Source: Ruminococcus albus 7 = DSM 20455
Lineage (GTDB): Bacteria > Bacillota > Clostridia > Oscillospirales > Ruminococcaceae
Assembly (NCBI RefSeq): GCF_000179635.2
Contig: NC_014824.1
Location: 300,001 to 332,000 of the forward strand
Direction of reading: 5' to 3'
Length of the DNA: 32,000 bases
The notes beneath the pieces are model-generated. The model ran no database searches. It saw nothing but the letters and a program-made list of their open reading frames with translations, and was not told the origin of the DNA. Made by a program: the position numbers and the translations under genes. This document shows, one piece after another, positions 1 through 31,047 of the stretch; position 1 is the stretch's first letter; every line of letters begins with the position of its first letter.

Positions 1-1
1 T

Positions 2-517
2 GATGAATATATTCCCGAATGTTACAGGGTACTTAAACCTGACAGACAGGCATACTTCTTCACAAATTTTCTTAATCTTCAGCAGCTTATTGAAGCAGTT
101 CAGAGGTCAGGATTTAAGGTTCATAACCTTTTGGTCTGGCTGAAAAATAATGCCACACCCAACAGATGGTACATGAAAAACTGTGAGAATGTATTGTTCT
201 GCTACAAAGGAAAAGCAAAGGCTATTTCAAACTGCGGAAGTAAGACCGTACATCAGTTTGATAACATAAAGGGACCAAAACTCCATGAGACCGAAAAACC
301 CGTTGAACTGCTTAAAATGTATATAGAAAATTCCACTGAAGAAGGAGAATGGATCCTTGACCCGTTTGCGGGCTCAGGTTCGACAATGGCGGCATCGCTT
401 CTTCTGAATAGAAAGGTATTTACCTGTGAGATAGATAAAAAGTATCTTAATGTAATAAAAACCAGAGCAATATCTATCCTGAAAAGCGGAGAAGATGATA
501 GGAACTTAGTAGTTTGA
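2..517 (+). CDS. DNA methyltransferase, beta-class N6-adenine/N4-cytosine type; 5' end lies outside the window
   Basis: Reading frame is open from position 2. It carries the C-terminal AdoMet motif ILDPFAGSGST preceded by HETEKPVELL, typical of the N6_N4 MTase family. TGA stop at 515-517. Confidence 0.85.
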   Translation, partial: DEYIPECYRVLKPDRQAYFFTNFLNLQQLIEAVQRSGFKVHNLLVWLKNNATPNRWYMKNCENVLFCYKGKAKAISNCGSKTVHQFDNIKGPKLHETEKPVELLKMYIENSTEEGEWILDPFAGSGSTMAASLLLNRKVFTCEIDKKYLNVIKTRAISILKSGEDDRNLVV

Positions 518-650
518 AAAAATCAGTTTTGCGTCAGCGGTGCTGCTTTTAATAAGATAAATATTCAATTATAATATTAACAGTATCAGTTTTTGGATAC
601 TTGGAGTAAAAAAAGAGTTACTATAATAATTAAAACAGGAGGAAGTAAAA

Positions 651-1361
651 ATGGGACTAGATATGTATTTGTACAAGGTATCTACACCGGAAATAAATGA
701 GGGCGAAATTATAAATGATATACACGAAGATCCAAGATGCTCCGGTGTTAAATTTATCAACACAGATGCAGAAAATGTTCTTTGCGACACAATTAAGAAA
801 ATTGCTGTAAAATGTATTATAACAGAACGATACTATAATATGAGAAAAATCATAACGGATTATCTAATGAATTTTGATGTTTTAGAAGAAAAAGCCTCTG
901 AATACGCAGAAAAGTTCTATCAGGGCGGATCTTCCTATAGTTGCACAAAACAATCTTTTAGTCTGTATTGTGATGATAATGAAGAAGTTAAAAGAATTCT
1001 TAATAGCATCGGTAATTCAGGCGAAACGATTTTAGAAACGACACCAAGTATGACAACGAGTATCAGGTATGAAAAAGATTATGATAGAATAGTTGTTAGT
1101 TTTACTGTGAATGAAACTAATATGCACTATGAAGGTAAATACCTCATCACAAAGAATAATAAAAAATATGCTGTAATAATGAAAGAAGTCGATTATCAGC
1201 GGAAAGGACTGAATGATACCGGATGGTCGTTGCTCCCGGAAAACTGTTGTTACTGCGATGATAAAGACCTTATCTGTGAAATGACTGAAGACGGCGGACT
1301 ATCAGAGTCCTTTATGGAAAATTGGATCGACAATGAAACAGTATTCTGGCCATGGTGGTAG
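651..1361 (+). CDS. hypothetical protein (236 aa, starts MGLDMYLY)
   Basis: ORF track; RBS acaGGAGGaagtaaaaATG. Confidence 0.7.
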   Translation: MGLDMYLYKVSTPEINEGEIINDIHEDPRCSGVKFINTDAENVLCDTIKKIAVKCIITERYYNMRKIITDYLMNFDVLEEKASEYAEKFYQGGSSYSCTKQSFSLYCDDNEEVKRILNSIGNSGETILETTPSMTTSIRYEKDYDRIVVSFTVNETNMHYEGKYLITKNNKKYAVIMKEVDYQRKGLNDTGWSLLPENCCYCDDKDLICEMTEDGGLSESFMENWIDNETVFWPWW

Positions 1362-1374
1362 AAGGAGATAAACA

Positions 1375-1686
1375 ATGAATGATGTAAAAGAAGAAAAACT
1401 GGAATACTATCAATGCCTGAAACTTCTAGAATACCTCGTAGAGATCGGCTTGATACAGAAAAATCCCCAAATTCCGTCTGATATTCTCGTTTTTTGTGAG
1501 GGTAATGGAGAGGAATATCCTGAAGGATGGTATAGTGAAAATATTTTCGATGCAGCAAGAGATCTGGTCAATAAACCGGATGAACAGAGAATACTGCTTG
1601 ATGCCATCGAGGAAAAGGGATTTAAAAAGCCTGAACTTCCTAAATTTGAAACCGTAAGACTAGATGTAGAAAAATTCTTCAGCTAG
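1375..1686 (+). CDS. hypothetical protein (103 aa)
   Basis: ORF track; RBS gaAGGAGataaacaATG; tightly follows the upstream gene. Confidence 0.7.
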   Translation: MNDVKEEKLEYYQCLKLLEYLVEIGLIQKNPQIPSDILVFCEGNGEEYPEGWYSENIFDAARDLVNKPDEQRILLDAIEEKGFKKPELPKFETVRLDVEKFFS

Positions 1687-1706
1687 TATAGTAATTCATG
1701 ATTACA

Positions 1707-1735
1707 AAGCGTCTCTCTCAGGAGGACGCTTTTAT
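1707..1735 (+). terminator. intrinsic terminator, conserved cassette-terminator family
   Basis: Hairpin AGCGTCTCTCtcagGAGGACGCT followed by TTT. G-U pairs form only in the + strand RNA. Confidence 0.7.
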
Positions 1736-2896: not shown

Positions 2897-3024
2897 ATGC
2901 TGTTATCCCAGATTATTTGGTCAATCGCTTCACAATTGTGGAGTGATTTTTTTATATAGTTTATACTCTTTTTTATTTATGCTTGTTTTCATATATAATA
3001 AATGTATAAAGGAGATGTACACTT

Positions 3025-3975
3025 ATGAAAATTAAAAAAATTACCATGGTGCTTTCAGTTGTGATTTCGGCGCTATTATGCTGTAATTTTGCAGGATACA
3101 GTTTTATAGAAGACGAGAACGTTCAATATACGAGTGAAAGCAATCCTGAAAGAATAAGCCCATTATCTTATAACATATCCTATTCATCAAAAGGATCATC
3201 AGACAGTTCATCCTTGAAAAAAATCAACAGTAATGATGATCCTCAAAAAGAAGAACCTGTATCTGTAATTGATATCACGGAGCCTTCTTTAAATGAAAGT
3301 TGTCAGGTTGTACCCGTTGATACCGGTGATAATGAATCTTCCTGTGATTCATCATGTGAAGAAAATAAGGAAGAAACGATTGTAGAAGAAAAAGCTCAGA
3401 AACCAGGATATACTATCATTACTGATATAATCGAGCTTGACACTTACATTTATAATCAGCTTGGCGGATCCATATATTCTTCTTCGTGATGTGGCCCGAC
3501 TTCAGCGGCCATGCTGCTGTCTTCAGAAAAAGGAATGGATATTTCTAAAGATGAGATTGTTGTAAATGCTTATGATAATGGTTTCTATTATGATGCAGGA
3601 ATAAATTTTACATCCGGAATGGGAGTCACACTAGAAAATATACAGGATCTTGTAAGCTATTACGGACAGGATTCCGAAATAGATCATTTATGGAATAATT
3701 CAAGTGAAGATATCATTTATACTATAAATGAAAAACTGAATGAAGGACACAGGCTTATATGCGGTCACAGAACTTTTAGCGGCACTCTTCATTATATAGT
3801 TATATACGGTAAATACTGTGAAAAAAACTGTATGTACTATAAAATAGTTGATCCGTGGGGCGGAACTGTTTATACTTGGGATCAGTGGACTCTTTCTGAC
3901 AGGATAATGAGTGTTGGCGGAGATGACGAATCGACTTTTGAAGGATGTGTAAAAGGATTATTGTGGCTTAAATGA
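3025..3975 (+). pseudogene. secreted papain-fold (peptidase C39-like) cysteine peptidase interrupted by one in-frame TGA (3487-3489)
   Basis: ORFs 3025-3489 and 3511-3975 are in the same frame. The sequence reads ...YNQLGGSIYSSS-TGA-CGPTSAAMLL..., giving the Gln / Cys-Gly-Pro / His (LHYIVIYG) / Asp (VDPWGG) order of C39-like peptidases. N-terminal signal peptide MKIKKITMVLSVVISALLCC. Confidence 0.6.
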
Positions 3976-4281
3976 TGGAGTGAATAATCCCGATCTGTGG
4001 CAGTACTTTTAGGACGACTTCTGAATAGTTATGTATAATTAAGCGCACTAAACTTCGATTTAGTGCGATAATACCGTGTGAAATTTAATGATGAAAAGCA
4101 ATTGCTGGAAAGCGATTCTCCTGTTCAAAACTGAAAACTTATGTAATTGCGGTTCTCATAGGAGGAAATTTTTTGTTTCGTTAGGGAAGTGCCACGAAAA
4201 TCAAAACGATAACAAAAAAAATCGGTCAATCAATAATTCATAAGAGAAAAAACGCTTTTATACTATTAGAAAATTTTTCTC

Positions 4282-4310
4282 TTGCATTATAACTTCATAT
4301 ATGTTATAAT
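4282..4310 (+). promoter_or_regulatory. sigma-70-type promoter upstream of scaffold RNA A1
   Basis: TTGCAT, 17 nt spacer, TATAAT. Confidence 0.5.
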
Positions 4311-4368
4311 GACTATAGAAAATCAATTTCATTGATCAGTAATACAGGGCGAATGATAAGCTCACGTT

Positions 4369-4507
4369 AAAATGCTGGGAGATTCGCACTTTATTTCGGG
4401 CGGCTCGGCGTCCGTAAATCGAGAAGTGCTCGTAAGTCTACAAATCTGTAGCCGAAGTAACTCTCGATAAGGTAAAAGCAATACACATTCAATCCGTGTA
4501 TTCAATT
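4369..4507 (+). ncRNA. structured scaffold RNA, copy A1 (tracrRNA/omega-RNA-like), directly upstream of CRISPR array 1
   Basis: Positions 4379-4526 differ from 13585-13732 by one nucleotide. Helices: GGGCG/CGTCC (4398-4413), ATCGAGA/TCTCGAT (4418-4424 with 4462-4468), CTACA/TGTAG (4438-4451), ATACAC/GTGTAT (4481-4501). The same architecture recurs with compensatory changes at 15853-15975. Confidence 0.6.
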
Positions 4508-4526
4508 TTATTTGTATAATTATGCA

Positions 4527-4824
4527 GATGCAATCTGTACAGGCAGGTAAATTGCGAGCAGCCATATCCTTTATCAGCCGTCCGCCGCATTCGGGGATGC
4601 AATCTGTACAGGCAGGTAAATTGCGAGGTGTAAAAGCCGTCAACATAAAAACCACTACTAGATGCAATCTGTACAGGCAGGTAAATTGCGAGAACAGACG
4701 TACAGTTTCAAGGGCGATTGAGATAGATGCAATCTGTACAGGCAGGTAAATTGCGAGAAGTCATTTGCAACAGAGATTTTATTAAAGTGGAGGATGCAAT
4801 CTGTACAGGCAAGTAAATTACAAA
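4527..4824 (+). CRISPR. mini-CRISPR array 1: 4 identical 32 nt repeats plus 1 degenerate terminal repeat, 4 spacers (37, 33, 33, 35 nt)
   Basis: Repeat GATGCAATCTGTACAGGCAGGTAAATTGCGAG at 4527, 4596, 4661 and 4726. Degenerate copy at 4793-4824. TTTGTATAAT promoter-like element at 4511-4520 immediately upstream. Confidence 0.9.
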
Positions 4825-4854
4825 AAACGAATTAAAAATTTTCCATCGAAAACC

Positions 4855-4883
4855 TTGACAGGGCCTACTTTATGATGTATAAT
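4855..4883 (+). promoter_or_regulatory. consensus sigma-70 promoter with no obvious ORF
   Basis: TTGACA, 17 nt spacer, TATAAT exactly. Followed by hairpin CTTGttaATAAGAAG...CGTCTTATctttCAAG (about 4907-4944) and a T-run near 4963-4972. Confidence 0.5.
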
Positions 4884-5010
4884 ATTATTAAAGTCAAATT
4901 AACTTGTTAATAAGAAGTACCGTTCGTCTTATCTTTCAAGTGTCATTTGGCTTTTATTTTTTTGCAATCTTTTCGGCTTCAGAAGTCTTCATATTATAAT
5001 AGTATCATAA

Positions 5011-5068
5011 CCAAGATCGTTTAACTGCCTGCAGCAATTGGAGCTGTAGAGACAAAAACAGATCTTGG
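5011..5068 (+). promoter_or_regulatory. conserved 5' leader hairpin (long-stem instance 3), followed by a T-run
   Basis: CCAAGATC...tTGGAGCTGTAGAGACAAaaaca...GATCTTGG then CTTTTTTT. TATAAT at 4994-4999. Confidence 0.5.
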
Positions 5069-5151
5069 CTTTTTTTATTGTAGTAAATTTTCTCCTATAA
5101 TAAAAATACAACATTCAAACAAATGGTAAGAAAAAGAAAGGAAATGTAAAG

Positions 5152-6264
5152 ATGAACAAATTCGGAAAGATCGTATCCTCGCTGACAGCACTGATGATAT
5201 TGGGGAGTACATTCACAGTAAATGCAGGCGCTGAAACTTTTTATACAAAAGGGGATATAAACAACAGCGGCACAGTAAATATTACGGATATCATTAAGAT
5301 AGCTTCTCATATAAAAAGCAAAAAAATGCTTAGTGAAGAGCGAAATGATATACTTGTACCGTATACAACACTCTGGGCTGCCGATGTCAACAGGGATGGA
5401 AAACTCAATATAACTGACATCACTACAATAGCGGCTCAAATAAAGAACGTAAAAAGTATTAGTAGCAGCACTAATGCATTTAAAAATGTAAGAAAACTAA
5501 CGACTCCTACCGAAACTGATATTATCGCTAGAGCACTCAGACTTACCGAAGCTAATCTCAAATACTACTCACCTAATGAGCCCAGAAAATATGATTTCAC
5601 AAAAGGAAACGACAAAGCTGAAAAAATCATCCTTAAAGAAGGAATAGACTGTTCGGGTATAATAAATTATGCTCTGGGTACACTTGGAATAGAAACAGAA
5701 GGTCTTCGTGGATCAAGCAACACTAATGCTGCACAATTTGGATATACTCCGGCAGCAACAGGTGACTGGCTCAATAAATATAACGTAATAAAGCCTGTAA
5801 AGAATGCTTATTGGATCGTTGACGGAACAAAGAAACCGATGAAAGTGCTGAAAAACGGTGTTTCTACCTCAAAACAGAAGTATTATCAGTACGGGAAGAA
5901 TAATGATATAATTCCTGTGGGTTCTATTGTCGTTGCCTTTGCTGAAGATAATAAAGGAAACCGCATGGCTAATGCAGATCATATGTGGCTGTATCTGGGC
6001 GAATACAACAATGCAAATGAAGTTAGAAAATACATAGCTTCACTGACAGATAAGGCTCCTGGGGATATTATGACCAGGATAGGCTCACAGAAGATAGGAT
6101 ATAATAGCAACAACAGCGATAATGACGGAAAACACTGGAGACTTGAAAGCACGGGTACTTGGCACGGTTTTGATAACTTCACCGGACCGCAGATAAATAA
6201 TGACCTTTGTAATAACACAAAAACACAGTATCTGATCTATGTTTTTGCCCCGCCCACTTTTTGA
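5152..6264 (+). CDS. secreted dockerin-containing NlpC/P60-family peptidase
   Basis: Signal peptide. Two dockerin repeats (GDINNSGTVNITDIIKIASHIK, ADVNRDGKLNITDITTIAAQIK). NlpC/P60-type GIDCSGIINYALG Cys motif and ADHMWLYLG His motif. Confidence 0.8.
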   Translation: MNKFGKIVSSLTALMILGSTFTVNAGAETFYTKGDINNSGTVNITDIIKIASHIKSKKMLSEERNDILVPYTTLWAADVNRDGKLNITDITTIAAQIKNVKSISSSTNAFKNVRKLTTPTETDIIARALRLTEANLKYYSPNEPRKYDFTKGNDKAEKIILKEGIDCSGIINYALGTLGIETEGLRGSSNTNAAQFGYTPAATGDWLNKYNVIKPVKNAYWIVDGTKKPMKVLKNGVSTSKQKYYQYGKNNDIIPVGSIVVAFAEDNKGNRMANADHMWLYLGEYNNANEVRKYIASLTDKAPGDIMTRIGSQKIGYNSNNSDNDGKHWRLESTGTWHGFDNFTGPQINNDLCNNTKTQYLIYVFAPPTF

Positions 6265-6276
6265 TAGCGTATAATT

Positions 6277-6294
6277 TGTGTCACGCGTGATACA
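6277..6294. repeat. palindrome family copy P1 (TGTGTCACGCGTGATACA)
   Basis: One mismatch to TGTGTCACGCGTGACACA. Lies 13 nt after the stop codon of 5152-6264. Confidence 0.8.
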
Positions 6295-6439
6295 AATAGA
6301 CCAACTAATAGAACAACTGAATGATAGCACTGGTTGGTGTATCATTTGTTCTATTGGTTGGTTTATTGTTTTTGTTTCATTTCTATGACGTATTATATCT
6401 TCTTGTATTTTCAAATATAATCTATTCAGGAATATTCAT

Positions 6440-7461
6440 CATGGTTATCCCTTTAACACACCACAGATAATTTACAATGCTGTCCAAATAAACAGACCTC
6501 AAAACTCAGAAAATATAGTATAATAGTGACAGAAACCGAAGGGAGCTGTCGCTATGTCAAAAAGATTTCCGAAACCTGAGATCACACTTGATGGGATATA
6601 CTCAAAGTTCGCAGATGAAAGCTTTTGCAAGGATTTTCTGCTTGATATCCGCTTTGAAAAGGGTTTTGCCTGCCCGTTTTGCGGTGGCTCTGAGTACCGC
6701 AGGATAAGGTCACGCCATCTGCTGCGATGCAAGTTCTGTAAAGCAGATATATCCGCCACAAACGGAACTTTTATGCACAGAACACATATTCCGCTCAGAC
6801 TGTGGATAGTCACCGCATTCCTCATTATGAGCAACAAATGCAGCGTTTCTGCTGTTACGCTGATGAGGTCTTTGGGGGTGACCTACAAGACTGCATGGTA
6901 CATCCTTCATCGCATCAGAAAAGCTATGAAATGCCGTGAAGAACGCTATTTGCTTGACGGGATCGTTGAACTTGATGACACGTATCTCGGTGCTCCGACT
7001 CACGGTAAAAAGCGTGGCAGAGGAACTGAAAAAGTCAAGATGATAGTAGCTTTGTCAAAGAACGCAGCAGGAAATCCCGAGTACGTTAAAATGAGCGATG
7101 TGCCGAATTTAAAGGGTATAACTGTTGGTAGATTTGCCAGGGATAATATCCGCGCAGGCTCGAAGATCGAGAGTGATAATGCTCGAAGTTACAAGAAACC
7201 GTTGGCACAGAAATACTTCCATGTTTTTGAAACATATGATCCGACAAGCGGTCAGCTGAACTGGATGCATAAAGTTATATCAAACTTCAAAGCAATGATC
7301 ATGGGAACTTACCACGGAAACGAAAAGATCCACACAGCGTTATATGCTGCCGAATACTGCTACAAATTCAACCGTCGTAAGCTGGGAAACAGTGCGTATT
7401 TAAGGCTTTTGGCTGCTTTGGTGCAGTGATCTTACTTGTGGTGTGTTAAAGGGATAACCAT
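6440..7461 (+). mobile_element. IS1595-family insertion sequence with target-site duplication
   Basis: 24 bp terminal inverted repeats ATGGTTATCCCTTTAACACACCAC (6441-6464; reverse complement at 7438-7461). Flanked by direct repeat AATATTCAT (6431-6439 and 7462-7470). Confidence 0.85.
6554..7429 (+). CDS. IS1595-family (ISXO2-like) DDE transposase
   Basis: N-terminal zinc-ribbon CPFCGG...CKFC, then IPLRLWIVTAFLIMSNK and VELDDTYLG, as in IS1595 transposases. Confidence 0.8.
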   Translation: MSKRFPKPEITLDGIYSKFADESFCKDFLLDIRFEKGFACPFCGGSEYRRIRSRHLLRCKFCKADISATNGTFMHRTHIPLRLWIVTAFLIMSNKCSVSAVTLMRSLGVTYKTAWYILHRIRKAMKCREERYLLDGIVELDDTYLGAPTHGKKRGRGTEKVKMIVALSKNAAGNPEYVKMSDVPNLKGITVGRFARDNIRAGSKIESDNARSYKKPLAQKYFHVFETYDPTSGQLNWMHKVISNFKAMIMGTYHGNEKIHTALYAAEYCYKFNRRKLGNSAYLRLLAALVQ

Positions 7462-7469: not shown

Positions 7470-7500
7470 TTGATAGCTTGGAGGTCAGACAAGTTGTTGA
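7470..7500 (+). promoter_or_regulatory. conserved 5' leader hairpin (instance 4)
   Basis: ttgatagctTGGAGGTCAGACaagttgttga. Its promoter (TATAAT 6414-6419) is displaced about 1 kb by the IS1595 insertion. Confidence 0.6.
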
Positions 7501-7550
7501 TAATACTTTCAAAATACATATCGAAGAAGATAAAAAGGAGCTTAAGAATT

Positions 7551-8138: not shown

Positions 8139-8140
8139 AC

Positions 8141-8509: not shown

Positions 8510-8528
8510 GAATAACAAGGAGGAAAAA

Positions 8529-9042: not shown

Positions 9043-9054
9043 AAGGAGCGTACA

Positions 9055-9285: not shown

Positions 9286-9303
9286 ATAAGACCTGTCTTT
9301 TAC

Positions 9304-11661: not shown

Positions 11662-11662
11662 G

Positions 11663-21160: not shown

Positions 21161-21208
21161 CTATTTTGAATTGTCAAATACAATATATAGAAATCGGAGG
21201 AATTACAA

Positions 21209-21727: not shown

Positions 21728-21831
21728 AGCCTCACACGACTAAAGTCGCGTGCTTCCTATAGTATCCTTACGGACACGCCCACTTTAGGCAGGCGGACTA
21801 CGTTTCTACCATACAGCCTGAACTCAGAAAA

Positions 21832-23157: not shown

Positions 23158-23332
23158 ACTGCAGACTCCCTCCTTATACTTGTTTTTTTGAGAATTAATG
23201 TAATCTGTTACATGTTTATGTTTAAGACTTCTGTCGCTTACAGTTGCTACAAAATACGATGGATTCCATATATATTATAGCAGATTTATTTAAGAATAAA
23301 AAATTATATATACTTAAAAGTTGTTCTGTGTT

Positions 23333-23350
23333 TGTGTCACGCGTGACACA
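23333..23350. repeat. palindrome family copy P6 (perfect; part of a ~33 bp extended palindrome) inside the TnpB element
   Basis: TTCTGTgTTTGTGTCACGCGTGACACAAACAGAA. Confidence 0.85.
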
Positions 23351-23621
23351 AACAGAATTCAAATTTTCTTTTTATGAGGTTTAAGATGCAGAAAGACAGC
23401 TAATCTTACTCACTTAGATGTCTTTCACTTAAGAATTATAGTATTTGACATTCTTAAGTGAGGCTTACAGTTTACAAGACGAAGTATATGATCAGGACTT
23501 CTGTATTTGGTAGTTCTTACGATATGGTATTACAATGAATATACATACCCTCGACCATGCACAACAGAATGTCTAGAAATGCCGCCTAACTCATGACTAA
23601 AGTCACGAGCGTGCAGCGGCA

Positions 23622-24176
23622 AAATCGTCAAAGTACGAAATTGAAGAGTACGGCTATTGGAACAATACAGATGAGCCAGACGGAATCACAAATGAGGAAT
23701 GGAAGAATTGTGGAGATGACTGGGACGCAGCATTACCCGGTTTAGGCGTCCCTTCAAGATGCGGTCTGTGTTCTTCCGATCTTATCGATCCTGATGTTCT
23801 ATTTTCCGAAATAAAAATGGCTGAGGATGGAAGAATGAGGAAAATTATAAATGATTTTTCACTATTAAAATACGTTCATGCGTTAGTTTGCGATAAAACT
23901 ATAAGCCACTTTGTAAAGATGGACAGTGAGTATGATGAAAAACTGTCATCGACTTATGCTTTAGTGGTAAAATACAGAGAAAAAATAGAAAAAGACGATC
24001 CTCAGATGAAGGATTATGCGGATAAGCTTGAAAACGAGATGATAGAACAGATATCGGACCGTTCCATAGAAGAAATACTATCTGGAAGCATACTCGAACT
24101 ACTACCGAAATATACAAGCTATAAAAAAATGCGGAATGAAGGAGGAAATGATTATGATAATCAAGTATCATCATAA
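23622..24176 (+). pseudogene. 3' fragment of the gene split by the TnpB element
   Basis: The frame is open upstream of the ORF-track ATG (23817), back to about 23622: ...KSSKYEIEEYGYWNNTDEPDGITNEEWKNCGDDWDAALPG... Confidence 0.55.
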
Positions 24177-24354
24177 AACTGAACCCAATGCCGAAAAAAC
24201 GTATAATACAGTCAGAGAATTAATGCGTAATGCTATTATTGTTGTAACAGGAACTCCCGGTATGGATCAGAAAACATTTGATCAACTGATGTTAATACGA
24301 TTCGAACAGGATAGGAAAAAGGGAATAATCCTTGATTACAAAATAGAAAACTGA
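24154..24354 (+). CDS. hypothetical protein (66 aa)
   Basis: AAGGAGG at 24139-24145, ATG at 24154; overlaps the upstream gene end. Confidence 0.55.
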   Translation: MIIKYHHKTEPNAEKTYNTVRELMRNAIIVVTGTPGMDQKTFDQLMLIRFEQDRKKGIILDYKIEN

Positions 24355-24363
24355 ACTGCTGTG

Positions 24364-24392
24364 AAAACATCTCTCTTAGGAGGGATGTTTTT
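24364..24392 (+). terminator. intrinsic terminator, conserved family
   Basis: AAAACATCTCTCttagGAGGGATGTTTTT. Confidence 0.75.
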
Positions 24393-24518
24393 CATTTTAG
24401 TATAAAAATTAATTTGATTGTTAATAATATTTGTCCAATCAAAAGACTTGACGATGTATTTTATAAATGCTATAATATAAAGTAACACAAATTAATTATT
24501 TAGAAGAGGGATGGTATT

Positions 24519-25592
24519 ATGTTTAACGCAAAAAAAATAGTTTCACTGGTTATGTCTGCGATTATTAGCAGTACAATGGTAACAGCGATACCCGCGAATG
24601 CGCAAGTTTACAAAAACGAATGCGCAGGTTTTAAGGCGGTAAAAGATTTAAAACTAGATGATGATGGAAATATATATGGTATGAAGTTCGATTCAATGCA
24701 GGGAATTGCTGGTGATTCTTCCTATATATATGTTGCAAAAAATCACAAAATATCCGAATCAGAACAATATGCGGTTATCTTTCGTTTAAATCCAAATAAC
24801 AAAAATGAAGCCCCAACATTGATGTCGTTCGATACAAAAAAGAATAATGAAAAAAATGTAGCCGGTGATCTCAGTCATGCAAACGATATGTTCTTACTCA
24901 AGGAAAACGGTATCAGATATCTTTATGTTAGCACTGGAGAAGGTCAGATTATTAAACTTCAGATCGATGATTCAAAGAAAAAACTGAAAAAAGTTAAGAG
25001 GATAACGGTAAAGAAAAATGGTGATACAAGATTGAAATTTTCCGGACTTTCGGGTTTTGAAGATGAACTTAATAATAAGTCTAGATATAAAATTATTTTA
25101 AAGGATAAAAACGAGATATATACAGCAACGATCAACAAGAATAACACGAACGAGAGTATTCCGGCATATAAAAAGTTTGACCTGAAAACAAAAGTTCAGT
25201 TGCCCGGTAAGGATAAAAATGGCAAGAGCACAAATGTTCTCCATGATCTTTCTGAGAAAAAATATGCGAATCAGGGAATATCTTACTATAATGGAGATCT
25301 TTATGTAACATATTCAATGAATTCGGATGATAAAAGTGTTCCGCATAATAAAAGTTTTATCATTATATATAAGAATGTATACAATAAATTAAACAATTCA
25401 GGAACTTCCACAATAGCAAATCCATATGGTGAAGCCAAATTCTATTTTGAAAGCGGTTCTTACCCTGATCTTTTTGAAATTGAAGGTTGTGCTATTGTAA
25501 ATAATACGGTTTTTTTTAATACCAATAGAAGAAAAACACCTTCAGATGCAAATTATGATGCCGTTCTTTATCTATCTAATTACAGACCATAA
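24519..25592 (+). CDS. secreted hypothetical protein (357 aa)
   Basis: Promoter TTGACG...TATAAT upstream. Signal peptide MFNAKKIVSLVMSAIISSTMVTAIPANA. Confidence 0.75.
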   Translation: MFNAKKIVSLVMSAIISSTMVTAIPANAQVYKNECAGFKAVKDLKLDDDGNIYGMKFDSMQGIAGDSSYIYVAKNHKISESEQYAVIFRLNPNNKNEAPTLMSFDTKKNNEKNVAGDLSHANDMFLLKENGIRYLYVSTGEGQIIKLQIDDSKKKLKKVKRITVKKNGDTRLKFSGLSGFEDELNNKSRYKIILKDKNEIYTATINKNNTNESIPAYKKFDLKTKVQLPGKDKNGKSTNVLHDLSEKKYANQGISYYNGDLYVTYSMNSDDKSVPHNKSFIIIYKNVYNKLNNSGTSTIANPYGEAKFYFESGSYPDLFEIEGCAIVNNTVFFNTNRRKTPSDANYDAVLYLSNYRP

Positions 25593-25600
25593 TTAATACC

Positions 25601-25627
25601 AACGTCTCTCTACGGAGAGGCGTTTTT
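25601..25627 (+). terminator. intrinsic terminator, conserved family
   Basis: AACGTCTCTCtacgGAGAGGCGTTTTT. Confidence 0.75.
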
Positions 25628-25707
25628 ATGTGTGTTACAATAGTTCAAATAAATCTTTTGCTTTTATCTTCATCAATTTTATCATACAATAAATTTGTAG
25701 ATGATTA

Positions 25708-25736
25708 TTGATGATATGGAGGTAAAAAATATTCGA
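25708..25736 (+). promoter_or_regulatory. leader motif, weak instance 11
   Basis: ttgatgataTGGAGGTAaaaaatattcga. Keeps TAGATG-ATTATTGAT and TGGAGGT, but the stem is poor. Confidence 0.35.
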
Positions 25737-25813
25737 GCGTTAGTAATATCCTCAATATTTCATTTATATTAATATTTCTATTGACATGACTAATGAAAAG
25801 GGAGGAAATTATA

Positions 25814-26122
25814 ATGTTTGATGTAAAAGTGATCACAAATGCTATTCATGAAGCACTTTTTTACGAAATGACATCTTTTCGCAGTAATGGATTTACTTAT
25901 GAGATAATTTGCTGGAAACCAAATCCGGTCGAAATTCGGAATTCAAGAAGAATTTGCAGAATATATAGATTGAATCCTGCGGAAAAAGAACGAAATCGAA
26001 TTACTTATTTAGAAATAAATGCAGATAACACATCAAAAGTGATCTGGAATGATTGCTTAAGTGAAGAAGATAAAAAAACTTTCACTGACGCTTTTAAAAA
26101 CAACAATATTATGATCGCTTAA
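25814..26122 (+). CDS. hypothetical protein (102 aa)
   Basis: ATG at 25814 after aaaGGGAGGaaattata. Confidence 0.65.
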   Translation: MFDVKVITNAIHEALFYEMTSFRSNGFTYEIICWKPNPVEIRNSRRICRIYRLNPAEKERNRITYLEINADNTSKVIWNDCLSEEDKKTFTDAFKNNNIMIA

Positions 26123-26167
26123 CGCTCGACTTTTCAGCACCTCACGTAAAGAGGTGCTTTTTTTTGT

Positions 26168-26915
26168 TGTAACCGAAAACCCCCGGCTATGCCGGGGGTT
26201 CTAAAAAGCTTTAGCTATGAGTAGAAAAATAAAACCTCCTGTGATAAACTAAGAATAGGTCTGGCAACCGAAACTTAGAATAACAAGGAGGTATCGTCAA
26301 TGACAAGAGACGATATAAATAGTTTAGCACATTCCAAGTGGAATTGCAAGTACCATGTAGTATTTGCCCCGAAATATCGAAGAATGGTGATTTATAATAA
26401 AATCAAAGTGGATATCGGAAAGATACTAAGAAAGTTGTGTGATCAAAAAGGAGTTAAAATAATCGAAGCAGAGGCGTGTCCTGATCATATACATATGCTG
26501 TTGTCTATTCCACCCAAATACAGTGTAGCAGAGATAATGGGATATTTGAAAGGCAAGAGTAGTTTGATGATATTTGACAGACACGCAAATCTGAAATATA
26601 AGTATGGCAACAGGCACTTCTGGTGCAGAGGATACTATGTTGATACAGTAGGAAAGAACAAGAAAAAGATAGCAGAGTACATCAGGAATCAGTTGCAGGA
26701 AGATATAGTGTGCGACCAGATCAGCCTGTTTGAGACAGTAGACCCATTTACAGGAGAAAAATACAAGAAAAAGTAGAAAACGAACACAAAATACCCCTTG
26801 AGGGGTTGCACGGGAATGAAATGCGGTTGACAGACCTTTCCCGACCCCTTAAGGGGTAGTGTCAGTATCATGCCCTTATAGGGCTAGTGCAAACCACCCG
26901 TTTAACGGGTGGTTT
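26168..26915 (+). mobile_element. IS200-type element (tnpA only); boundaries approximate
   Basis: Left hairpin AACCCCCGGCtatGCCGGGGGTT (about 26180-26202). Several right-end hairpins: CCCCTTgaGGGG, CCCCTTAAGGGG, GCCCTtatAGGGC, ACCACCCGtttaaCGGGTGGT (about 26795-26915). Confidence 0.75.
26300..26776 (+). CDS. tnpA: IS200/IS605-family Y1 (HUH) transposase TnpA
   Basis: HUH motif PDHIHMLL; catalytic Tyr context RGYYVDTVG; size 158 aa. Confidence 0.9.
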   Translation: MTRDDINSLAHSKWNCKYHVVFAPKYRRMVIYNKIKVDIGKILRKLCDQKGVKIIEAEACPDHIHMLLSIPPKYSVAEIMGYLKGKSSLMIFDRHANLKYKYGNRHFWCRGYYVDTVGKNKKKIAEYIRNQLQEDIVCDQISLFETVDPFTGEKYKKK

Positions 26916-26933
26916 TGATTCACGCGTGATAAA
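26916..26933. repeat. palindrome family copy P7 (degenerate, TGATTCACGCGTGATAAA)
   Basis: Core TCACGCGTGA is intact; the outer positions have diverged symmetrically. Confidence 0.55.
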
Positions 26934-26997
26934 ACCCAAAAAATAAAACGTTCCACCGAAGTGAAACGTCTGGAAAAAATATTTTCTCTTTATTCTT

Positions 26998-27717
26998 CTA
27001 ATCCTGTATCCTTAATGCAAACCACATATTATCGCTTGTAATAAAACTTAAGAGATCAATGATTTTTTCTGTAATGGCTTGATTGTTATATTCGGAATAA
27101 CAAAAATTGATCTGTAAAATTTCTATATTTTGGGTTGTAGCATTTCTTTGTTCTGTAACTGAGACCACGTTCACACCGAGATACTTATTTTTAGAATTCT
27201 CGTAGATGGCAAGATTCTTATTATCCAGAGTTATATGTTGACTGTAAGAATACGGATCTTCTCTGGTATCTACATAGATTCTGTCATCAGGATCACTTTG
27301 AAGATGAAAAATACGTTTTTGAAAATGATTAGTTGAATCAAAAATAGATAAGAATGCGCTTGAATTTGCTGAGCATATTTTATAACAAAATACTTGGAAA
27401 CTATTATTGTGTAAAAAACGCCTATTTTTAGCGCTTTGTAAAAATTCCGGTAAACAAAATGTTATAAAGCCATGATGTAAACCTTTAGGATTATCGCTAA
27501 TAGAAACTTCTACGAGATAATCCCGTGTGATCTCACTTTTATAAGTGTTAGTATAGTACGGATAATTTTCTGGATCTAATTCACTTGCCAAGGAACCATA
27601 AAATGATTGTTCCATGGCGGGATTTTGAGCTTTTATAAGAATTGTTACATCGCTTTTTAATGCTGCCCAATCATCCTGTTTGCCGGCAGGAGAAAATCTA
27701 AAACAATTATTTGACAT
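26998..27717 (-). CDS. hypothetical protein (239 aa); the only confident non-IS minus-strand gene
   Basis: ORF track; RBS GAAGGTG. Minus-strand terminator hairpin AGACGTTTCACttcgGTGGAACGT plus T-run at about 26945-26975. Confidence 0.65.
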   Translation of the reverse strand: MSNNCFRFSPAGKQDDWAALKSDVTILIKAQNPAMEQSFYGSLASELDPENYPYYTNTYKSEITRDYLVEVSISDNPKGLHHGFITFCLPEFLQSAKNRRFLHNNSFQVFCYKICSANSSAFLSIFDSTNHFQKRIFHLQSDPDDRIYVDTREDPYSYSQHITLDNKNLAIYENSKNKYLGVNVVSVTEQRNATTQNIEILQINFCYSEYNNQAITEKIIDLLSFITSDNMWFALRIQD

Positions 27718-27900
27718 TAATACACCTTCTTTTTTCTATAATATAATTATACTAGATTTTTTTCTAATGGGAAAAAATTTTTTCTTGCTGTCGTTTTTAT
27801 TACTCTAAATTTTCTGCTATTATATGATTGCATTTGTAATAATAAAAAATAAGGGAATGCATAATCTGATAATACACAGGAAAACGAAAGGATGATTTTT

Positions 27901-29841
27901 ATGAGCAAAAAGTATAATAGGGTTCTGGCAGGAATTATATCATTAACGTTAATGTTTTCAATGACAATAACCGTATCAGCTGTTGAAAACGAAATGGATT
28001 CAAATTCGTATGATTCAAGCAATACGAGTGTAAGTTACCCTGAAGCCTCAACAAATAAGATAGCAGTAAATGATATTTATCTCATGGACAGTGAAGATAT
28101 GAGTTTCGGAACCGTATATAATCCGGCTATATTAAGAAGTAATTCACCAAAATACTGTGGTTTGAAAGTCAAGCTGACCAAGCAAGGCGATATTACTTTA
28201 AGCATGACTGCAACTTCAAACAAAGTGTCACTTCTTTTTGTGGATTCAAACGGCAGCATAAAGGAAAAGTATGATTATACGGGAAGAACAAATGAAGTCG
28301 GTCAGATAAAACTGGCAAAAGTGCCGGCGGGAAACTATTATGTTGTTATATATAATAAAGGTGTAACATCAGATACAGTTGTTTCTGATCTGTTCATAAA
28401 ATCCTCTGTTATCTTCGATATCACTGACACCGGTAAACTCAAGGCCACGACTGACTACTCAAAAAATGAGGCTGTTCCGGCATATAAATTCAAGTACAAC
28501 GGTGTGGAACTTAAGGAAAATGTTGACTATAAGGTGCTCAGAACTTCCAGCAGCAACAAAAAGATCTCCGGAGGTATAGAATATTCTTTTACTGTTGAGA
28601 TACAGGGCTTAGGAAACTATGTTGGTAAAACCTCCAGGACGTTCATAAACTCTGTAGATGATGAAAACAATAAGATCAATTTTATTGAATGTGAAGTAAG
28701 CGAACCGACGTATAAAGGCGAAAACCCTGTATTTGTTGTTAAACACAAAGGTAAAATCCTTACTGAAAACAAAGATTATAAGATCGTAATAAATACATCA
28801 GATGTTACTAAGTCCGGAGTTACTTACAGAACCTATAACTGCACATTTATAGGTATGGGAAATTATGCAGGAAGCTTCTCCTATAAAATAGAGAATCACA
28901 AAATTTCCGACACGACAAAGAAAAACATTTCCTCCTGCAGTATCACTCCGGTTTTCTCAAAAGGCGAATTCGTGAAGCTTATCGTTATGGATAACGATAA
29001 AACACTAGCTCAAAACACAGATTACACTTACACAGTCACTAAAACCGGGGAAACTGAAAAAAATGGGATCACTACTATTAGCTATGAAATAGTAGTGTAT
29101 GGCATCGGCTCATACATAGGTTCCTGTACGGCAAACGGAACTACACAGAAAAACGGCAAGATCGTTTTAAATTTCAGTGATTACAGCGTTGGAGACAAAG
29201 AGTATACCGGCAGACAGATAACTCCGAATCCCACATTGGTAATAACCGATAGAAACGGAAAGGAGATCACTCTGAAAAAGGATGAAGATTATACTATAAC
29301 CTATGGTTCTAACACTGCAGTAGGTTTTCTTGCAGGTAATTTTACAATTAAAGGAATAGGAAACTATACAGGAACTTCGTATATCCGGTTCAATATTGTC
29401 CCCGCAAAAATCAATGATATTAAAGGCTCACCTATCAGCGTCGGTTATACCGGAAAAGCTGCAACTCCGTTCAATGATAAAATTCGCCTTTCTGATGGAA
29501 GAGCTGTACTTTATGGTATAGATTATACTGTAGAGTATTCTAACAACGTTAAGATCGGAACAGCTACGGCAGTGATCAAGTTCAAGGGTAACTACCAGGG
29601 TACTGTAACAAAAAAATTCAGCATCGTAGAAGGAACAACGCTGTCAAAGGGAGATGTTAACGGAGATGGAAAAATCAACATAACTGATATAACTCTTGCA
29701 GCAGCTCATATAAAAGGCAGAAAGATCATTGACTCAAAAGATGACTTGCTCAGAGTTGACGTAAACGAAGACGGAAAAGTGAATATTACCGATATTGTAG
29801 TGATAGCAGCTCATATAAAAGGGAAAAAAACTCTGAAATAG
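27901..29841 (+). CDS. secreted cell-surface protein with tandem Ig-like repeats and C-terminal dockerin
   Basis: ATG at 27901, 8 nt after GAAAGGA; signal peptide. Repeated ...DY.V.......G......I.G.GNY.G....F.I units. Dockerin GDVNGDGKINITDITLAAAHIKG / VDVNEDGKVNITDIVVIAAHIKG. Confidence 0.8.
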   Translation: MSKKYNRVLAGIISLTLMFSMTITVSAVENEMDSNSYDSSNTSVSYPEASTNKIAVNDIYLMDSEDMSFGTVYNPAILRSNSPKYCGLKVKLTKQGDITLSMTATSNKVSLLFVDSNGSIKEKYDYTGRTNEVGQIKLAKVPAGNYYVVIYNKGVTSDTVVSDLFIKSSVIFDITDTGKLKATTDYSKNEAVPAYKFKYNGVELKENVDYKVLRTSSSNKKISGGIEYSFTVEIQGLGNYVGKTSRTFINSVDDENNKINFIECEVSEPTYKGENPVFVVKHKGKILTENKDYKIVINTSDVTKSGVTYRTYNCTFIGMGNYAGSFSYKIENHKISDTTKKNISSCSITPVFSKGEFVKLIVMDNDKTLAQNTDYTYTVTKTGETEKNGITTISYEIVVYGIGSYIGSCTANGTTQKNGKIVLNFSDYSVGDKEYTGRQITPNPTLVITDRNGKEITLKKDEDYTITYGSNTAVGFLAGNFTIKGIGNYTGTSYIRFNIVPAKINDIKGSPISVGYTGKAATPFNDKIRLSDGRAVLYGIDYTVEYSNNVKIGTATAVIKFKGNYQGTVTKKFSIVEGTTLSKGDVNGDGKINITDITLAAAHIKGRKIIDSKDDLLRVDVNEDGKVNITDIVVIAAHIKGKKTLK

Positions 29842-29851
29842 AAAAAACTTG

Positions 29852-29896
29852 CAACACATCTGTTCTTAATAGAATGGATGTGTTTTGCTTTTTTAA
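29852..29896 (+). terminator. intrinsic terminator
   Basis: CACATCtgttcttaatagaatgGATGTG followed by TTTTGCTTTTTT. Confidence 0.6.
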
Positions 29897-29978
29897 ATTA
29901 CAAATCAATGAAAGATTTCATCCGGAATGAAATTATCTTGATAAGTTTTCTTGTATAATTATTTTAGGTTTACGCTTA

Positions 29979-30010
29979 TTGATAAAATGGAGTCGCAGAC
30001 CGAATATTAT
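29979..30010 (+). promoter_or_regulatory. conserved 5' leader hairpin (instance 12)
   Basis: ttgataaaaTGGAGTCGCAGACCGAATATTat after TATAAT (29954-29959). The loop matches instance 2 (GGAGTC...AGACCGAATATT). Confidence 0.5.
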
Positions 30011-30027
30011 AATACGGAGGAATAAAA

Positions 30028-30690
30028 ATGTTAGACGTAAAATCGATCAAAGAAAAATATCTCCCGGGAACCAGAGTGAAGCTTATTCACATGGATGATC
30101 CATATCATCCTGTTCCGGATAATACCTGCGGTACTGTCACTGAAGTTGATGACGTAGGTACTGTTCACGCAAAATTTGACAACGGAAGCGGTCTGGGGAT
30201 ATGTCTTGAAGTAGATAAGGTAGAGATAATTGAAATACCATATGTAAGAAAGCTTTATAGAACAGGTAAAGATTCGATCTCCTGCTATCCCATCAATGAA
30301 GATTCTGTAGAAATTAAACCAAGCAGCGTATTTGATGATGAATTTGATATCATTGAAAATGACGAAGAAAAAGATTACGGATACACAGAAATTAGCTTTG
30401 TAGAAGGGAAGTATCGTGCAGATTGCTGGAAACACAGGCTTCCGCTCAAAGAATTTAGCACATACGAAGAAGCGGTAAATGAGCTGAGAGAATGCTGTAG
30501 TTATTGCAGCGGTGATGAAAATACAATAGAGGAAGCTATTAACGATCATCTCATTTGGTGGTGTTCTCACGTTTTTGTTGAGGATATTAAAATTAATAAT
30601 ATTCCTGTTTTTGATTTGTCTGATGGTGAAATCAAAAATCTGCTTGATCGTGGTTTTTCAGGTAGCAGGATCTTTATTAGGAGGATATAA
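30028..30690 (+). CDS. DUF4314-like domain protein (220 aa)
   Basis: RBS acGGAGGaataaaaATG. The N-terminal GTRVKLIHMDDPYHPVPDNTCGTVTEVDDVGTVHAKFDNGSGLGI matches my recollection of the DUF4314 signature common on Firmicutes mobile elements. Confidence 0.65.
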   Translation: MLDVKSIKEKYLPGTRVKLIHMDDPYHPVPDNTCGTVTEVDDVGTVHAKFDNGSGLGICLEVDKVEIIEIPYVRKLYRTGKDSISCYPINEDSVEIKPSSVFDDEFDIIENDEEKDYGYTEISFVEGKYRADCWKHRLPLKEFSTYEEAVNELRECCSYCSGDENTIEEAINDHLIWWCSHVFVEDIKINNIPVFDLSDGEIKNLLDRGFSGSRIFIRRI

Positions 30691-31047
30691 TAAAAATGGG
30701 AAGTCTGCAAGGAAGAATGATATGCCCAAATTGCGGAGCTGAAGGAGTATATAACGAATCATAAAATAACTTGTTATTGTTCCGAATTGTCCGATGTAAT
30801 CAAAAACTCGGTTTGAATCAATAGAATATAGTATTCAGTTAGACTGCTGCAGAAATGTGGCAGTTTTTTACTGTACTGTTCTTAATAAATATTTTTGCGT
30901 AAAAATCGAACTGTATATAAAAATTCCTAAAAAAAATATAAAGCGAGGCGATTTTTTTTTATTTTCAATAATTTTCTTATATAATAAGAGTACAAAGCTT
31001 TCAAATAAACAACCAAACAATATTAAATCATGAAAGGAGAATTATGA

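Follow-up and report, generated by a model that had tools for sequence, protein, structure and literature searches.

The window analysed here is a stretch of 32,000 nucleotides from Ruminococcus albus 7 = DSM 20455 (NC_014824.1, positions 300,001–332,000, forward strand; coordinates below are those of the window). It probably represents most of a hypervariable accessory island, in which the genes are carried in about 22–24 autonomous, co-directional transcription units. A composite module of about 105 nt lies between units and consists of an intrinsic terminator, a promoter and a 5′ leader hairpin, often with a palindrome added. We favour, with moderate confidence, an island whose cassettes turn over by recombination between these regulatory modules, which resemble the PeSL motifs of T4-type phages.

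A first-pass annotation, made from the letters of the sequence, had placed nearly every gene block on the + strand and described about 20 cassettes built from homologous parts. The strand bias is confirmed, with 36 of 38 complete genes on the + strand. If the cut methylase and the DUF772 transposase are included, the count is 37 + and 3 −, and two of the three − strand genes are transposon genes. The parts exceed shuffled controls, but not every unit has every part. Some of the cassettes described are RNA units (two CRISPR arrays) or insertion sequence (IS) elements. The cargo open reading frames (ORFs) are mutually unrelated, as had been stated, save for shared dockerin domains.

Thirty-two non-identical modules give the consensus [hairpin]TTTTTAT-N10-AATTTTC-N3-TATAAT-N17-TTGATAA-N2-3-GGAG, and the layout is retained even where the stem sequence is different. 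The intrinsic terminator follows AACGTCTCTC-N4-GAGGGRCGTT, also given as AAACGTCTCTC-N4-GAGGGRCGTTTTT. Each terminator position in the first-pass annotation holds a hairpin of the AACGTCTCTC-loop-GAGGGGCGTT family. Taken literally and with the loop left free, the consensus proposed there matches nothing exactly in the window, and the family is real only when one or two changes are allowed. The same two G-U pairs, said to be kept throughout, occur in most copies; the terminators at 24364 and 13444 have a compensatory change (CG to CA with CG to TG), and at 25601 a G-U pair is replaced by A-U. The supposed expanded-loop copy at 15617–15655 proved to be a weak 6-bp bulged hairpin. Stems are near-invariant across 24 distinct terminators while the 4-nt loop varies freely, which may leave room for a sequence-specific factor.

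The promoter consensus is TTTTCnnnTATAAT, with AATTTTC at −19 to −13 and TATAAT at −10. The hairpins pass a terminator scan. In the 32 modules the terminator T-tract covers −37 to −31 relative to the TATAAT box and so falls on the −35 position, and the promoter lacks a −35 consensus because the T-tract occupies that place. Terminator and promoter are 38–40 nt apart in compact copies, and farther apart in the window lineage. The compact module, found in R. albus 8 and metagenome contigs, reads AAACGTCTCTCTCACGAGGGGCGTTTTTATTTGTCTGAATTTTCTTATATAAT, 17 nt, then TTGATAATCGGAG. The leader hairpin sequence (TTGATrannnGGAG...) lies 30–33 nt past the promoter in all lineages.

Enrichment of each part was judged against dinucleotide-preserving shuffles. 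The promoter TTTTCNNNTATAAT was found 26 times with at most one mismatch (3.95 expected), and its 10 exact copies are all on the + strand. With at most one mismatch, the terminator arm AACGTCTCTC was found 8 times (1.17 expected; 8 reached in 0 of 100 shuffles) and the leader TTGATARNNNGGAG 9 times (1.34 expected). The palindrome TGTCACGCGTGACA was found 6 times with at most two mismatches (0.07 expected), and a seventh, more degenerate copy lies at 26913. A generic sigma-70 promoter scan showed no enrichment (59 found, 59.5 expected), so the signal is that of a specific family and not of AT-richness. All-versus-all local alignment of 21 intergenic regions gave a mean score of 24.6, against 18.8 ± 0.19 for dinucleotide shuffles. 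Twelve intergenic pairs scored at least 40, compared with none in 30 shuffles and one in the reverse-complement orientation. The part similarity claimed by the first-pass annotation is thus above what AT-rich sequence gives by chance.

A profile hidden Markov model (HMM) of the module was built from 21 modules, solely from genomes outside the window lineage. All of its matches are on the + strand: 13 in the window, 3 in the left extension of the island, and 4 after tnsA in metagenome contig L038. The flanks gave no match (4.6 kb searched on the left, 8.5 kb on the right), and neither did the Tn7-like region described below, an unrelated contig, the 12 kb left of the array in L038, or the related Tn7-like locus beside guaA in another metagenome (L041). 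These results bear on whether the similarity is chance or convergence of AT-rich intergenic DNA, generic sigma-A promoters and terminators. In favour of chance, a G+C content of 36% makes TATAAT boxes and A/T tracts common, and the generic scan was unenriched. However, the motifs are 6- to 80-fold enriched and strand-specific, the alignments exceed shuffles, the independent profile matches inside the island only, and the spacing of parts is fixed; we regard this explanation as already refuted and its probability as practically negligible.

The leader appears to act as a folded nucleic acid. Helices anchored at TTGAT average 7.97 bp, compared with 5.36 ± 0.21 bp when the downstream tail is shuffled, and 19 of 38 leaders have a helix of at least 8 bp (2.65 expected). 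The 3′ arm varies (TTATTGAT, ATCAAT, GTCAAGA, GTCGAT, GGCTATTGG) and retains pairing with the 5′ arm TTGATra; TTATTGAT arms pair by G-U only, and ATCAAT, GTCAAGA and GTCGAT by Watson-Crick pairs. A 3′ arm that varies yet pairs, partly through G-U only, points to an RNA or single-stranded DNA structure rather than a duplex operator. The hairpin was demonstrated by single folds and the anchored-helix test; RNAalifold on a raw MAFFT alignment of 20 leaders returned no consensus structure. The loop bears GGAG, often as GGAGGTCAGAC (GGAG(GTCAGAC)). The hairpin would start about 10–15 nt into the transcript and expose a Shine-Dalgarno-like GGAGG. Most likely it stabilises the mRNA or is a common handle for one RNA-binding regulator.

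The palindrome, TTGTGTCAC(G/A)CGTGACACAA, is perfect over 20 bp and abuts the terminator T-tract at 11667, 17646 and 19320 and in 5 other contigs. It is most likely the operator of one DNA-binding protein. A likeness to cre, lacO or CRP sites was a by-eye judgement and was dropped. For the leader, palindrome and CRISPR scaffold (described below) no Rfam family exists; the Rfam matches were an IS200 5′ untranslated region (UTR) and one sub-threshold chance match. Functions of the parts were assigned from sequence and from what is generally known of intrinsic terminators, sigma-A −10 boxes and Firmicutes 5′ stabiliser hairpins.

Comparisons with relatives show that cassettes turn over. One genome per species was scanned with the leader motif, which found 3 copies in R. 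albus 8 and 1 in a goat-omasum Oscillospiraceae metagenome-assembled genome (MAG). A terminator scan of metagenomes yielded 16 contigs, each with same-orientation modules around small ORFs. Plus-strand ORFs of at least 80 aa were pooled from the window, R. albus 8 and the 16 metagenome contigs. The 163 pooled ORFs form 85 families, 33 in the window and 52 absent from it. The cassette-level variation expected by the first-pass annotation is present, and the region is not fixed and syntenic among relatives. Cassettes shared with R. albus 8 are collinear (the 112-aa ORF, a fused 154+154-aa ORF, a 163-aa homologue, an 85-aa ORF and cas12f), with other units between them and the 178-aa unit missing. 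The ricin-lectin cassette of R. albus 8 corresponds to 42 bp between terminator and promoter in the window strain.

Close relatives, at 92–100% amino-acid identity, differ by whole units. L024 is 96% identical to the window from the promoter at 17684 on; left of it the DNA is 72% identical or unrelated. L022 has three other ORFs in place of the whole DUF4241 and macrodomain pair. In 4 metagenome contigs, homology blocks break off where a family terminator ends, at 9331, and other blocks end at 15480 (terminator end) and 6297 (palindrome). Identity along L025 runs 98%, 88% and 98%, with one break at the palindrome/IS200 site and another immediately past the DUF4314 gene, a pattern that reads as a recombination mosaic. 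L019 carries a module and scaffold in tandem duplicate, and two CRISPR units 9.2 kb apart in the window share a 192-nt leader that is 95% identical; both are products expected of inter-module recombination. The spacer TTTGTCTGAATTTTC is common to all R. albus 8-type modules and occurs in no window-lineage module, and such lineage-wide sameness is what gene conversion among modules would produce.

These comparisons, together with the PeSL precedent, are the basis on which we infer the mechanism. As direct repeats of 70–95% identity, the modules offer homology for RecA-type or unequal crossing-over. Crossing-over between modules would delete, duplicate, insert or replace cassettes and leave the genes unbroken. 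The terminator would insulate a unit from its upstream neighbour, and terminator and promoter together would give each cassette an insulated expression unit.

PeSLs of T4-type phages (Arbiol et al. 2010, PMC2839356; Comeau et al. 2014, PMC4122927) likewise join terminator and promoter in a short motif that recurs, always in the same orientation, between ORFans that are non-essential. They have a conserved stem, and relatives differ by motif-bounded insertion, deletion or replacement of ORFs; homologous recombination between motifs was proposed for that turnover (PMC2839356, PMC4122927). In contrast, the present modules lie in a bacterial island without phage genes and have an extra leader hairpin with a GGAG loop and often a palindrome. 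Early promoters of PeSLs have the sigma-70 consensus, whereas the island promoters have no −35 consensus, and island units, unlike PeSLs, hold up to six genes or an RNA gene. The PeSL system is the closest match in workings, and its phage context fails. The island modules were therefore filed as cellular three- or four-part mobile regulatory cassettes.

A prophage hyperplastic early-gene region with true PeSL motifs would have this architecture, and the cargo is mostly small ORFans, two of whose proteins match PHROG. It is nevertheless highly improbable. Genes for capsid, tail, terminase, integrase or replication are absent from the window and the 8–10 kb on either side, searches of INPHARED (25 kb of DNA) and IMG/VR (palindrome and leader) were empty, and 8 of the 10 proteins compared with PHROG have no match there.

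Several points weigh against recombination between modules as the driver of turnover. Homology-driven conversion alone does not predict invariant stems, which could point to a sequence-specific reader or recombinase. Modules of the window lineage are looser and partly decayed, with inserts between terminator and promoter, and some units lack a leader or a family terminator. Recombination within modules would be read from a handful of block ends, and blocks must end between unrelated cassettes, so some coincidence with the parts is expected. The profile scan covered about 30 kb of flanking and control DNA, so island specificity is partly tested. The promoter, terminator and leader functions are predictions from sequence.

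The island is about 34 kb long, the window is most of its length, and the host belongs to the R. albus group. The window matches contig JHYT01000052 of GCA_000621285.1 at 100% identity over 8578–22212 and contig JHYT01000042 of the same assembly at 99.98% identity from 26598 on. The array begins about 2.7 kb left of the window and finishes near 31,300. The left extension, taken from Logan contigs of the same strain, has three further leader-bearing units with 262-aa, 94-aa and 361-aa methylase genes. Beyond the leftmost units are an ABC transporter and HU. Right of the SpoVS gene that ends the array are a DUF772 transposase, a RES-domain gene and polysaccharide-synthesis genes, so both flanks look chromosomal. 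No G+C contrast was found between the island (0.36) and its flanks (0.36–0.39), and composition therefore fails to mark the island. The window contains no tRNA. A literature search for an earlier description of the island in R. albus turned up nothing specific.

The first-pass annotation had suggested a mobile element, conjugative element or prophage. Pfam searches of the window and 8–10 kb on each side found no integrase, relaxase, coupling protein, type IV secretion system (T4SS), ssb, ardA, psiB or phage gene, and that membership is not upheld. Its counter-defence cargo was also unsupported. Recognised cargo consists of an orphan-type methylase, a DarG-like macrodomain, SUKH-1, DUF4241, DUF4314, three dockerin proteins and CRISPR-Cas12f. 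The methylase, macrodomain, DUF4314 and SMI1 proteins of that annotation are among these; the PcfM-like protein had no Pfam match, and it is a PcfJ-like gene that forms the first cassette in R. albus 8.

It is unlikely that the array serves an integrated conjugative element or megaplasmid as its leading or establishment region, with the shared parts forming a regulon switched on briefly after transfer. This reading, which would liken the array to EGeRS (below) or to the anti-defence leading regions of plasmids, would account for co-directional genes with a conserved regulatory sequence before variable operons, as in PMC8708921, and the palindrome could be a shared operator. The orphan-type methylase, the PcfJ-like first cassette of R. 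albus 8, DUF4314 and the macrodomain fit such a region, and relatives of Cas12f1 are mostly on conjugative Bacillus plasmids. However, neither an oriT nor the transfer and establishment genes listed above were found in the window and 8–10 kb on each side, and the flanks hold HU, an ABC transporter and polysaccharide synthesis. Searches of PLSDB were empty for the DNA, the module and two cargo proteins alike: 25 kb of the window searched by megablast matched no plasmid (PLSDB) or phage (INPHARED), tblastn with the DUF4314 protein and the 236-aa protein found nothing in PLSDB, and neither did the module queried there in distant mode. The palindrome and leader were also unmatched in IMG/VR. Of genes of the anti-restriction, ssb or psiB type, the orphan-type methylase alone turned up. 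No long Frpo-like hairpins were found, and the leader hairpins follow ordinary −10 boxes. Three secreted dockerin proteins and CRISPR are not establishment-type cargo, and a strong terminator per unit would be needless for a transient regulon.

EGeRS1 and EGeRS2 of the pLS20/p576-family plasmids (Val-Calvo et al. 2021, PMC8708921) are also Firmicutes elements that place one regulatory sequence before variable operons. EGeRS copies have 50–95% identity and block read-through from upstream (PMC8708921). EGeRS1 is 420–750 bp long, GC-rich, without a constitutive promoter and beside conjugation genes, whereas the island modules are about 105 nt, AT-rich and number more than 15.

In R. albus 8 (L021), L017 and L038–L040, a gap of about 195 bp separates the first (PcfJ-like) cassette from a divergent Tn7-like set, tnsA (116 aa)-tnsB-tniB-tniQ. 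The set heads the array on its 5′ side in R. albus 8, in a goat-omasum MAG and in three metagenome contigs. It is lost from the window strain, whose PcfJ-like gene survives only as a 3′ remnant (L008 4698–4937). L041 has a TnsB element, 60% identical, beside guaA and without modules. Tn7-like terminal repeats were not found in L017. The usual Tn7 layout puts the array outside that transposon. A CRISPR-associated Tn7-like system (CAST) was considered and rejected: the window and left 8 kb have no tns genes, and the set in R. albus 8 is many cassettes from cas12f and on the wrong (tnsA) side.

These observations bear on a dedicated recombinase encoded elsewhere (the Tn7-like tns set or a Y1 transposase) that recognises the terminator or the palindrome, which would make the island a Gram-positive analogue of integrons or rAID-1 with promoter-bearing cassettes. 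The near-invariant stems with a free loop, the perfect palindrome fixed in position on the T-tract, and an IS200 inside a palindrome arm would suit it. The divergent tns set at the 5′ end mirrors the position of intI, and rAID-1 shows that repetitive intergenic sequence and a recombinase occur together in gut bacteria. Yet the window and near flanks have no integrase or recombinase gene, and the window strain has no tns set and an intact array. The guaA Tn7-like element has no modules, and the array would lie outside the transposon by the usual layout. The few junctions differ in place (after the terminator, at the promoter, after the palindrome), and the hairpins have no attC features. We consider this origin quite improbable, and turnover by recombination between PeSL-like modules remains our preferred reading.

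Both rAID-1 (Ross et al. 2019, bioRxiv 10.1101/471110) and integrons are long co-directional arrays of small genes with repetitive intergenic sequence and gene gain. Arrays of the rAID-1 type are recognised by a XerD-like recombinase at the 5′ end that is more than 44% identical to BF9343_RS08045 (bioRxiv 10.1101/471110). No tyrosine recombinase (XerD-like or IntI) was found by Pfam in the window, L008 or L001, and the 5′ neighbour in R. albus 8 is the tns set. One SUKH-1 immunity-type gene is the single such match in the island, where most cargo is unassigned, and the phylum differs. Integron cassettes are promoterless with attC sites of 57–141 nt, whereas island units have their own promoters and their 24-nt hairpins are T-tract terminators. 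The first-pass annotation had drawn the same distinction from integrons, and it holds: units have their own promoters and there is no integrase gene.

The features of the window are as follows; family terminators are those of the consensus above.

1–517, + strand: 3′ part of a 361-aa N6/N4 DNA methyltransferase gene (Pfam N6_N4_Mtase, 6e-21; PADLOC type II / orphan MTase); its promoter and leader lie left of the window (module HMM match at L008 6661–6736), and the full gene is in L007/L008.

562–1731, + strand: unit with promoter-like site 562–575, ORFs 651–1361 (236 aa) and 1375–1686 (103 aa), neither with a family match, and family terminator 1707–1731.

1706–1798, + strand: full terminator-promoter-leader module, with terminator 1707–1731, −10 box at about 1750 and leader from 1776 (module HMM E=1e-7).

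1862–2236, + strand: unit with 112-aa ORF (orthologue in R. albus 8) and terminator 2215–2236.

2214–2335, + strand: module with terminator, promoter 2253–2266 and long leader hairpin 2279–2330 (module HMM E=5e-6).

2360–2948, + strand: unit with 178-aa ORF (PHROG matches of unknown function) and terminator 2923–2948.

2986–3975, + strand: unit with promoter 2986–2999, no leader, and ORFs 3025–3489 and 3511–3975 (one 325-aa ORF in R. albus 8).

4257–4854, + strand: RNA unit with scaffold of about 190 nt (4349–4526), promoter TTTGTATAAT at 4509–4520 and CRISPR array 1 at 4527–4830.

4855–5075, + strand: short ORF-less unit with perfect TTGACA-17-TATAAT promoter 4855–4883, then about 190 nt.

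5067–6293, + strand: unit with module promoter 5088–5101, dockerin protein 5152–6264 and palindrome 6274–6293 (module HMM).

6396–6439, + strand: module promoter 6408–6421, severed from its leader by an IS (module HMM).

6440–7461, + strand: IS1595-family insertion with transposase 6554–7429, 24-bp inverted repeats ATGGTTATCCCTTTAACACACCAC and 9-bp target duplication AATATTCAT.

7470–9331, + strand: unit with leader hairpin 7470–7501, six ORFs 7548–9285 and family terminator 9304–9331.

9530–11679, + strand: unit with promoter-like site 9530–9558, leucine-rich repeat (LRR)-transglutaminase-dockerin protein 9603–11552, terminator at about 11634–11659 (read by eye, outside the terminator scan) and palindrome 11660–11679.

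11689–13473, + strand: unit with module 11689–11777, ORFs 11829–12350, 12390–12881 and 12901–13416, and terminator 13443–13473.

13482–13996, + strand: RNA unit with scaffold copy 13555–13732, promoter, CRISPR array 2 at 13733–13935 and scaffold remnant 13965–13996.

14125–14745, + strand: SMI1/KNR4 (SUKH-1) protein (Pfam 4e-10).

15029–15478, + strand: unit with promoter 15051–15064, leader from 15082, ORF 15157–15414 (orthologues in R. albus 8, L027 and L035) and family terminator 15453–15478 (module HMM).

15505–15655, + strand: short ORF-less unit with TTGACT-17-TATAAT promoter, palindrome 15589–15608 and degenerate terminator 15617–15655.

15635–17658, + strand: Cas12f unit with promoter 15665–15678, leader from 15698, scaffold copy 15836–16020 and cas12f 16073–17434; its 3′ end has scaffold remnant 17460–17500, a hairpin and T-run at about 17600–17628 (by eye, outside the scan) and palindrome 17639–17658.

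17676–19402, + strand: unit with promoter 17684–17697, leader from 17713, DUF4241 protein 17766–18581 and macrodomain protein 18578–19054; its 3′ end has terminator 19280–19306, palindrome 19313–19332 and second terminator 19382–19402.

19383–21043, + strand: unit with promoter 19409–19422, leader from 19440, six small ORFs 19523–20996 and family terminator 21019–21043 (module HMM E=2e-8).

21092–24392, + strand: unit with promoter 21100–21113, leader from 21130, split 354-aa gene (21209–21727 and 23817–24176), ORF 24136–24354 and family terminator 24363–24392.

21729–23626, − strand: TnpB-only IS200/IS605-family insertion with tnpB 21832–23157 (Pfam OrfB_IS605) and palindrome copy 23330–23349.

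24448–25624, + strand: unit with TTGACG-17-TATAAT promoter, ORF 24519–25592 (357 aa, signal-peptide-like N-terminus) and family terminator 25601–25624.

25662–26158, + strand: unit with promoter 25677–25690, leader from 25708, ORF 25793–26122 and terminator 26136–26158 (module HMM).

26166–26907, + strand: IS200 insertion with Y1 transposase 26300–26776 (Pfam Y1_Tnp, 1e-40).

26913–27717, − strand: convergent junction with palindrome 26913–26932, − strand terminator 26946–26971 and gene 26998–27717 (239 aa), the only non-transposon gene on the − strand.

27810–29884, + strand: unit with promoter 27810–27823, dockerin protein 27892–29841 and terminator 29853–29884.

29935–30866, + strand: unit with promoter 29946–29959, leader from 29979, DUF4314 protein 30028–30690 and terminator 30841–30866 (module HMM).

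30945–31323, + strand: last unit, with module promoter 30972–30985, no leader, and SpoVS-family protein 31048–31323; no module was found to the right of it.

Details of single units are as follows. A family terminator (12365–12391) lies between the first two ORFs of the unit at 11689–13473 and no promoter follows it; its 3′ arm (GGAAAGG) is where the ribosome-binding site of the next ORF (TTG at 12390) would be. R. albus 8 has a full module before the orthologue of ORF 12390–12881. The ORF-less unit at 15505–15655 has a strong promoter (TTGACT-17-TATAAT with TG), and its transcript of about 110 nt would carry the palindrome as an RNA hairpin. The DUF4241 and DarG-like macrodomain genes (17766–19054) share a 4-nt overlap (ATGA), which hints at translational coupling of the two. 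The 649-aa dockerin gene (27892–29841) is broken into two ORFs by a frameshift or stop in L003 and L006 (two runs, near-identical strains).

Three IS insertions, the IS1595 element, the TnpB-only IS and IS200, were dated by their absence from close relatives. The IS1595 element lies exactly between promoter 6408 and leader 7470, and its excision restores the 31-nt spacing; the insertion probably silences or rewires the downstream six-gene unit. The TnpB-only IS is missing from L024 and L025, where the interrupted 354-aa gene is intact. Its end hairpins, CACACGAC-TAAA-GTCGCGTG, are unlike the palindrome, and its inner palindrome copy is about 290 nt from one end. IS200 lies between the terminator T-tract and the core of palindrome 26913–26932 and is missing from L025, and represents a single event. 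Its 5′ UTR matches Rfam STnc490 at 53.3 bits, just below the gathering score of 56.

The 453-aa protein is a Cas12f1 (type V-F1). The closest solved structure is AsCas12f 8J12 (E=2e-95, 45%-range similarity), PADLOC assigned Cas12f at 4e-134, and the protein is akin to RuCas12f1 of Karvelis et al. (PMC7229846). The RuvC-I Asp is replaced by Asn (N241; GVNLGV versus G[IV]D[LV]G[VIL]), and the Glu and second Asp are present. Asn is also found at this position in 3 orthologues (L019, L027 and L035; 80–86% identity), and Asp in 5 of 5 characterised active type V-U3 enzymes, including RuCas12f1. A natural nuclease-deficient RNA-guided DNA binder is plausible from this substitution. Nuclease-dead Cas12f near arrays was noted earlier (PMC13472631).

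Array 1 (4527–4830) has 5 repeats of GATGCAATCTGTACAGGCAGGTAAATTGCGAG and 4 spacers, and array 2 (13733–13935) has 3 repeats of a variant that differs mid-repeat. They are separate cassettes, 11 kb (array 1) and 2 kb (array 2) from cas12f. Each array follows a scaffold that is about 190 nt long and has a TTTGTATAAT promoter of its own, and 13555–13732 and 4349–4540 are 95% identical. A diverged copy precedes cas12f (15836–16020), and remnants follow cas12f (17460–17500) and array 2 (13965–13996). The scaffold is a tracrRNA candidate; a 12-nt stretch of it could pair with the repeat 3′ end at 11 of 12 positions (by eye only). Spacer targets were not found in the window or the loci compared with it, nor in IMG/VR (4 spacers). 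The system resembles type V-F1 (formerly V-U3) loci that lack adaptation genes, such as those of AsCas12f1 and RuCas12f1 (PMC7229846); the island has short arrays with repeats of 32–33 nt and spacers of 33–37 nt, and no cas1 or cas2. It differs from those loci in the Asn at RuvC-I, in arrays that lie apart from the gene, and in having a scaffold copy per array.

The ORF-less unit at 4855–5075, next to array 1, seems to end in a long hairpin and T-run (by eye, not folded or scanned). Part of it shows partial complementarity with the central portion of the CRISPR repeat (13 of 18, by eye), and its transcript may be a small RNA or an alternative tracrRNA. A more speculative proposal is that the invariant stem or the fused palindrome is the site of a dedicated recombination system, with the tns set at the array head in R. 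albus 8, or a Y1 transposase that acts on single-stranded hairpins, as candidates. The island would then be an integron-like Gram-positive capture platform for cassettes with a promoter, leader and terminator of their own, and the RuvC-mutant Cas12f and its guide units possibly its control; we hold this to be a long shot.

Outside integrons and T4-type phages, gain and loss of genes in ORFan islands without broken expression is mostly unexplained. This island illustrates the phage PeSL principle clearly in a cellular setting, here a rumen Firmicute that degrades fibre. Its portable module, about 105 nt long, would insulate and express its cargo, would probably stabilise it, and would supply the homology for exchange. 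The modules are natural insulated expression parts for Ruminococcus, and the pan-cassette pool, useful for asking what selects for such islands, comprises at least 85 families. Within the Clostridia, the RuvC-mutant Cas12f with separate guide cassettes is a candidate for a natural RNA-guided DNA binder. The conservation of the leader and the palindrome implies that one or two trans-acting factors govern the island as a whole.

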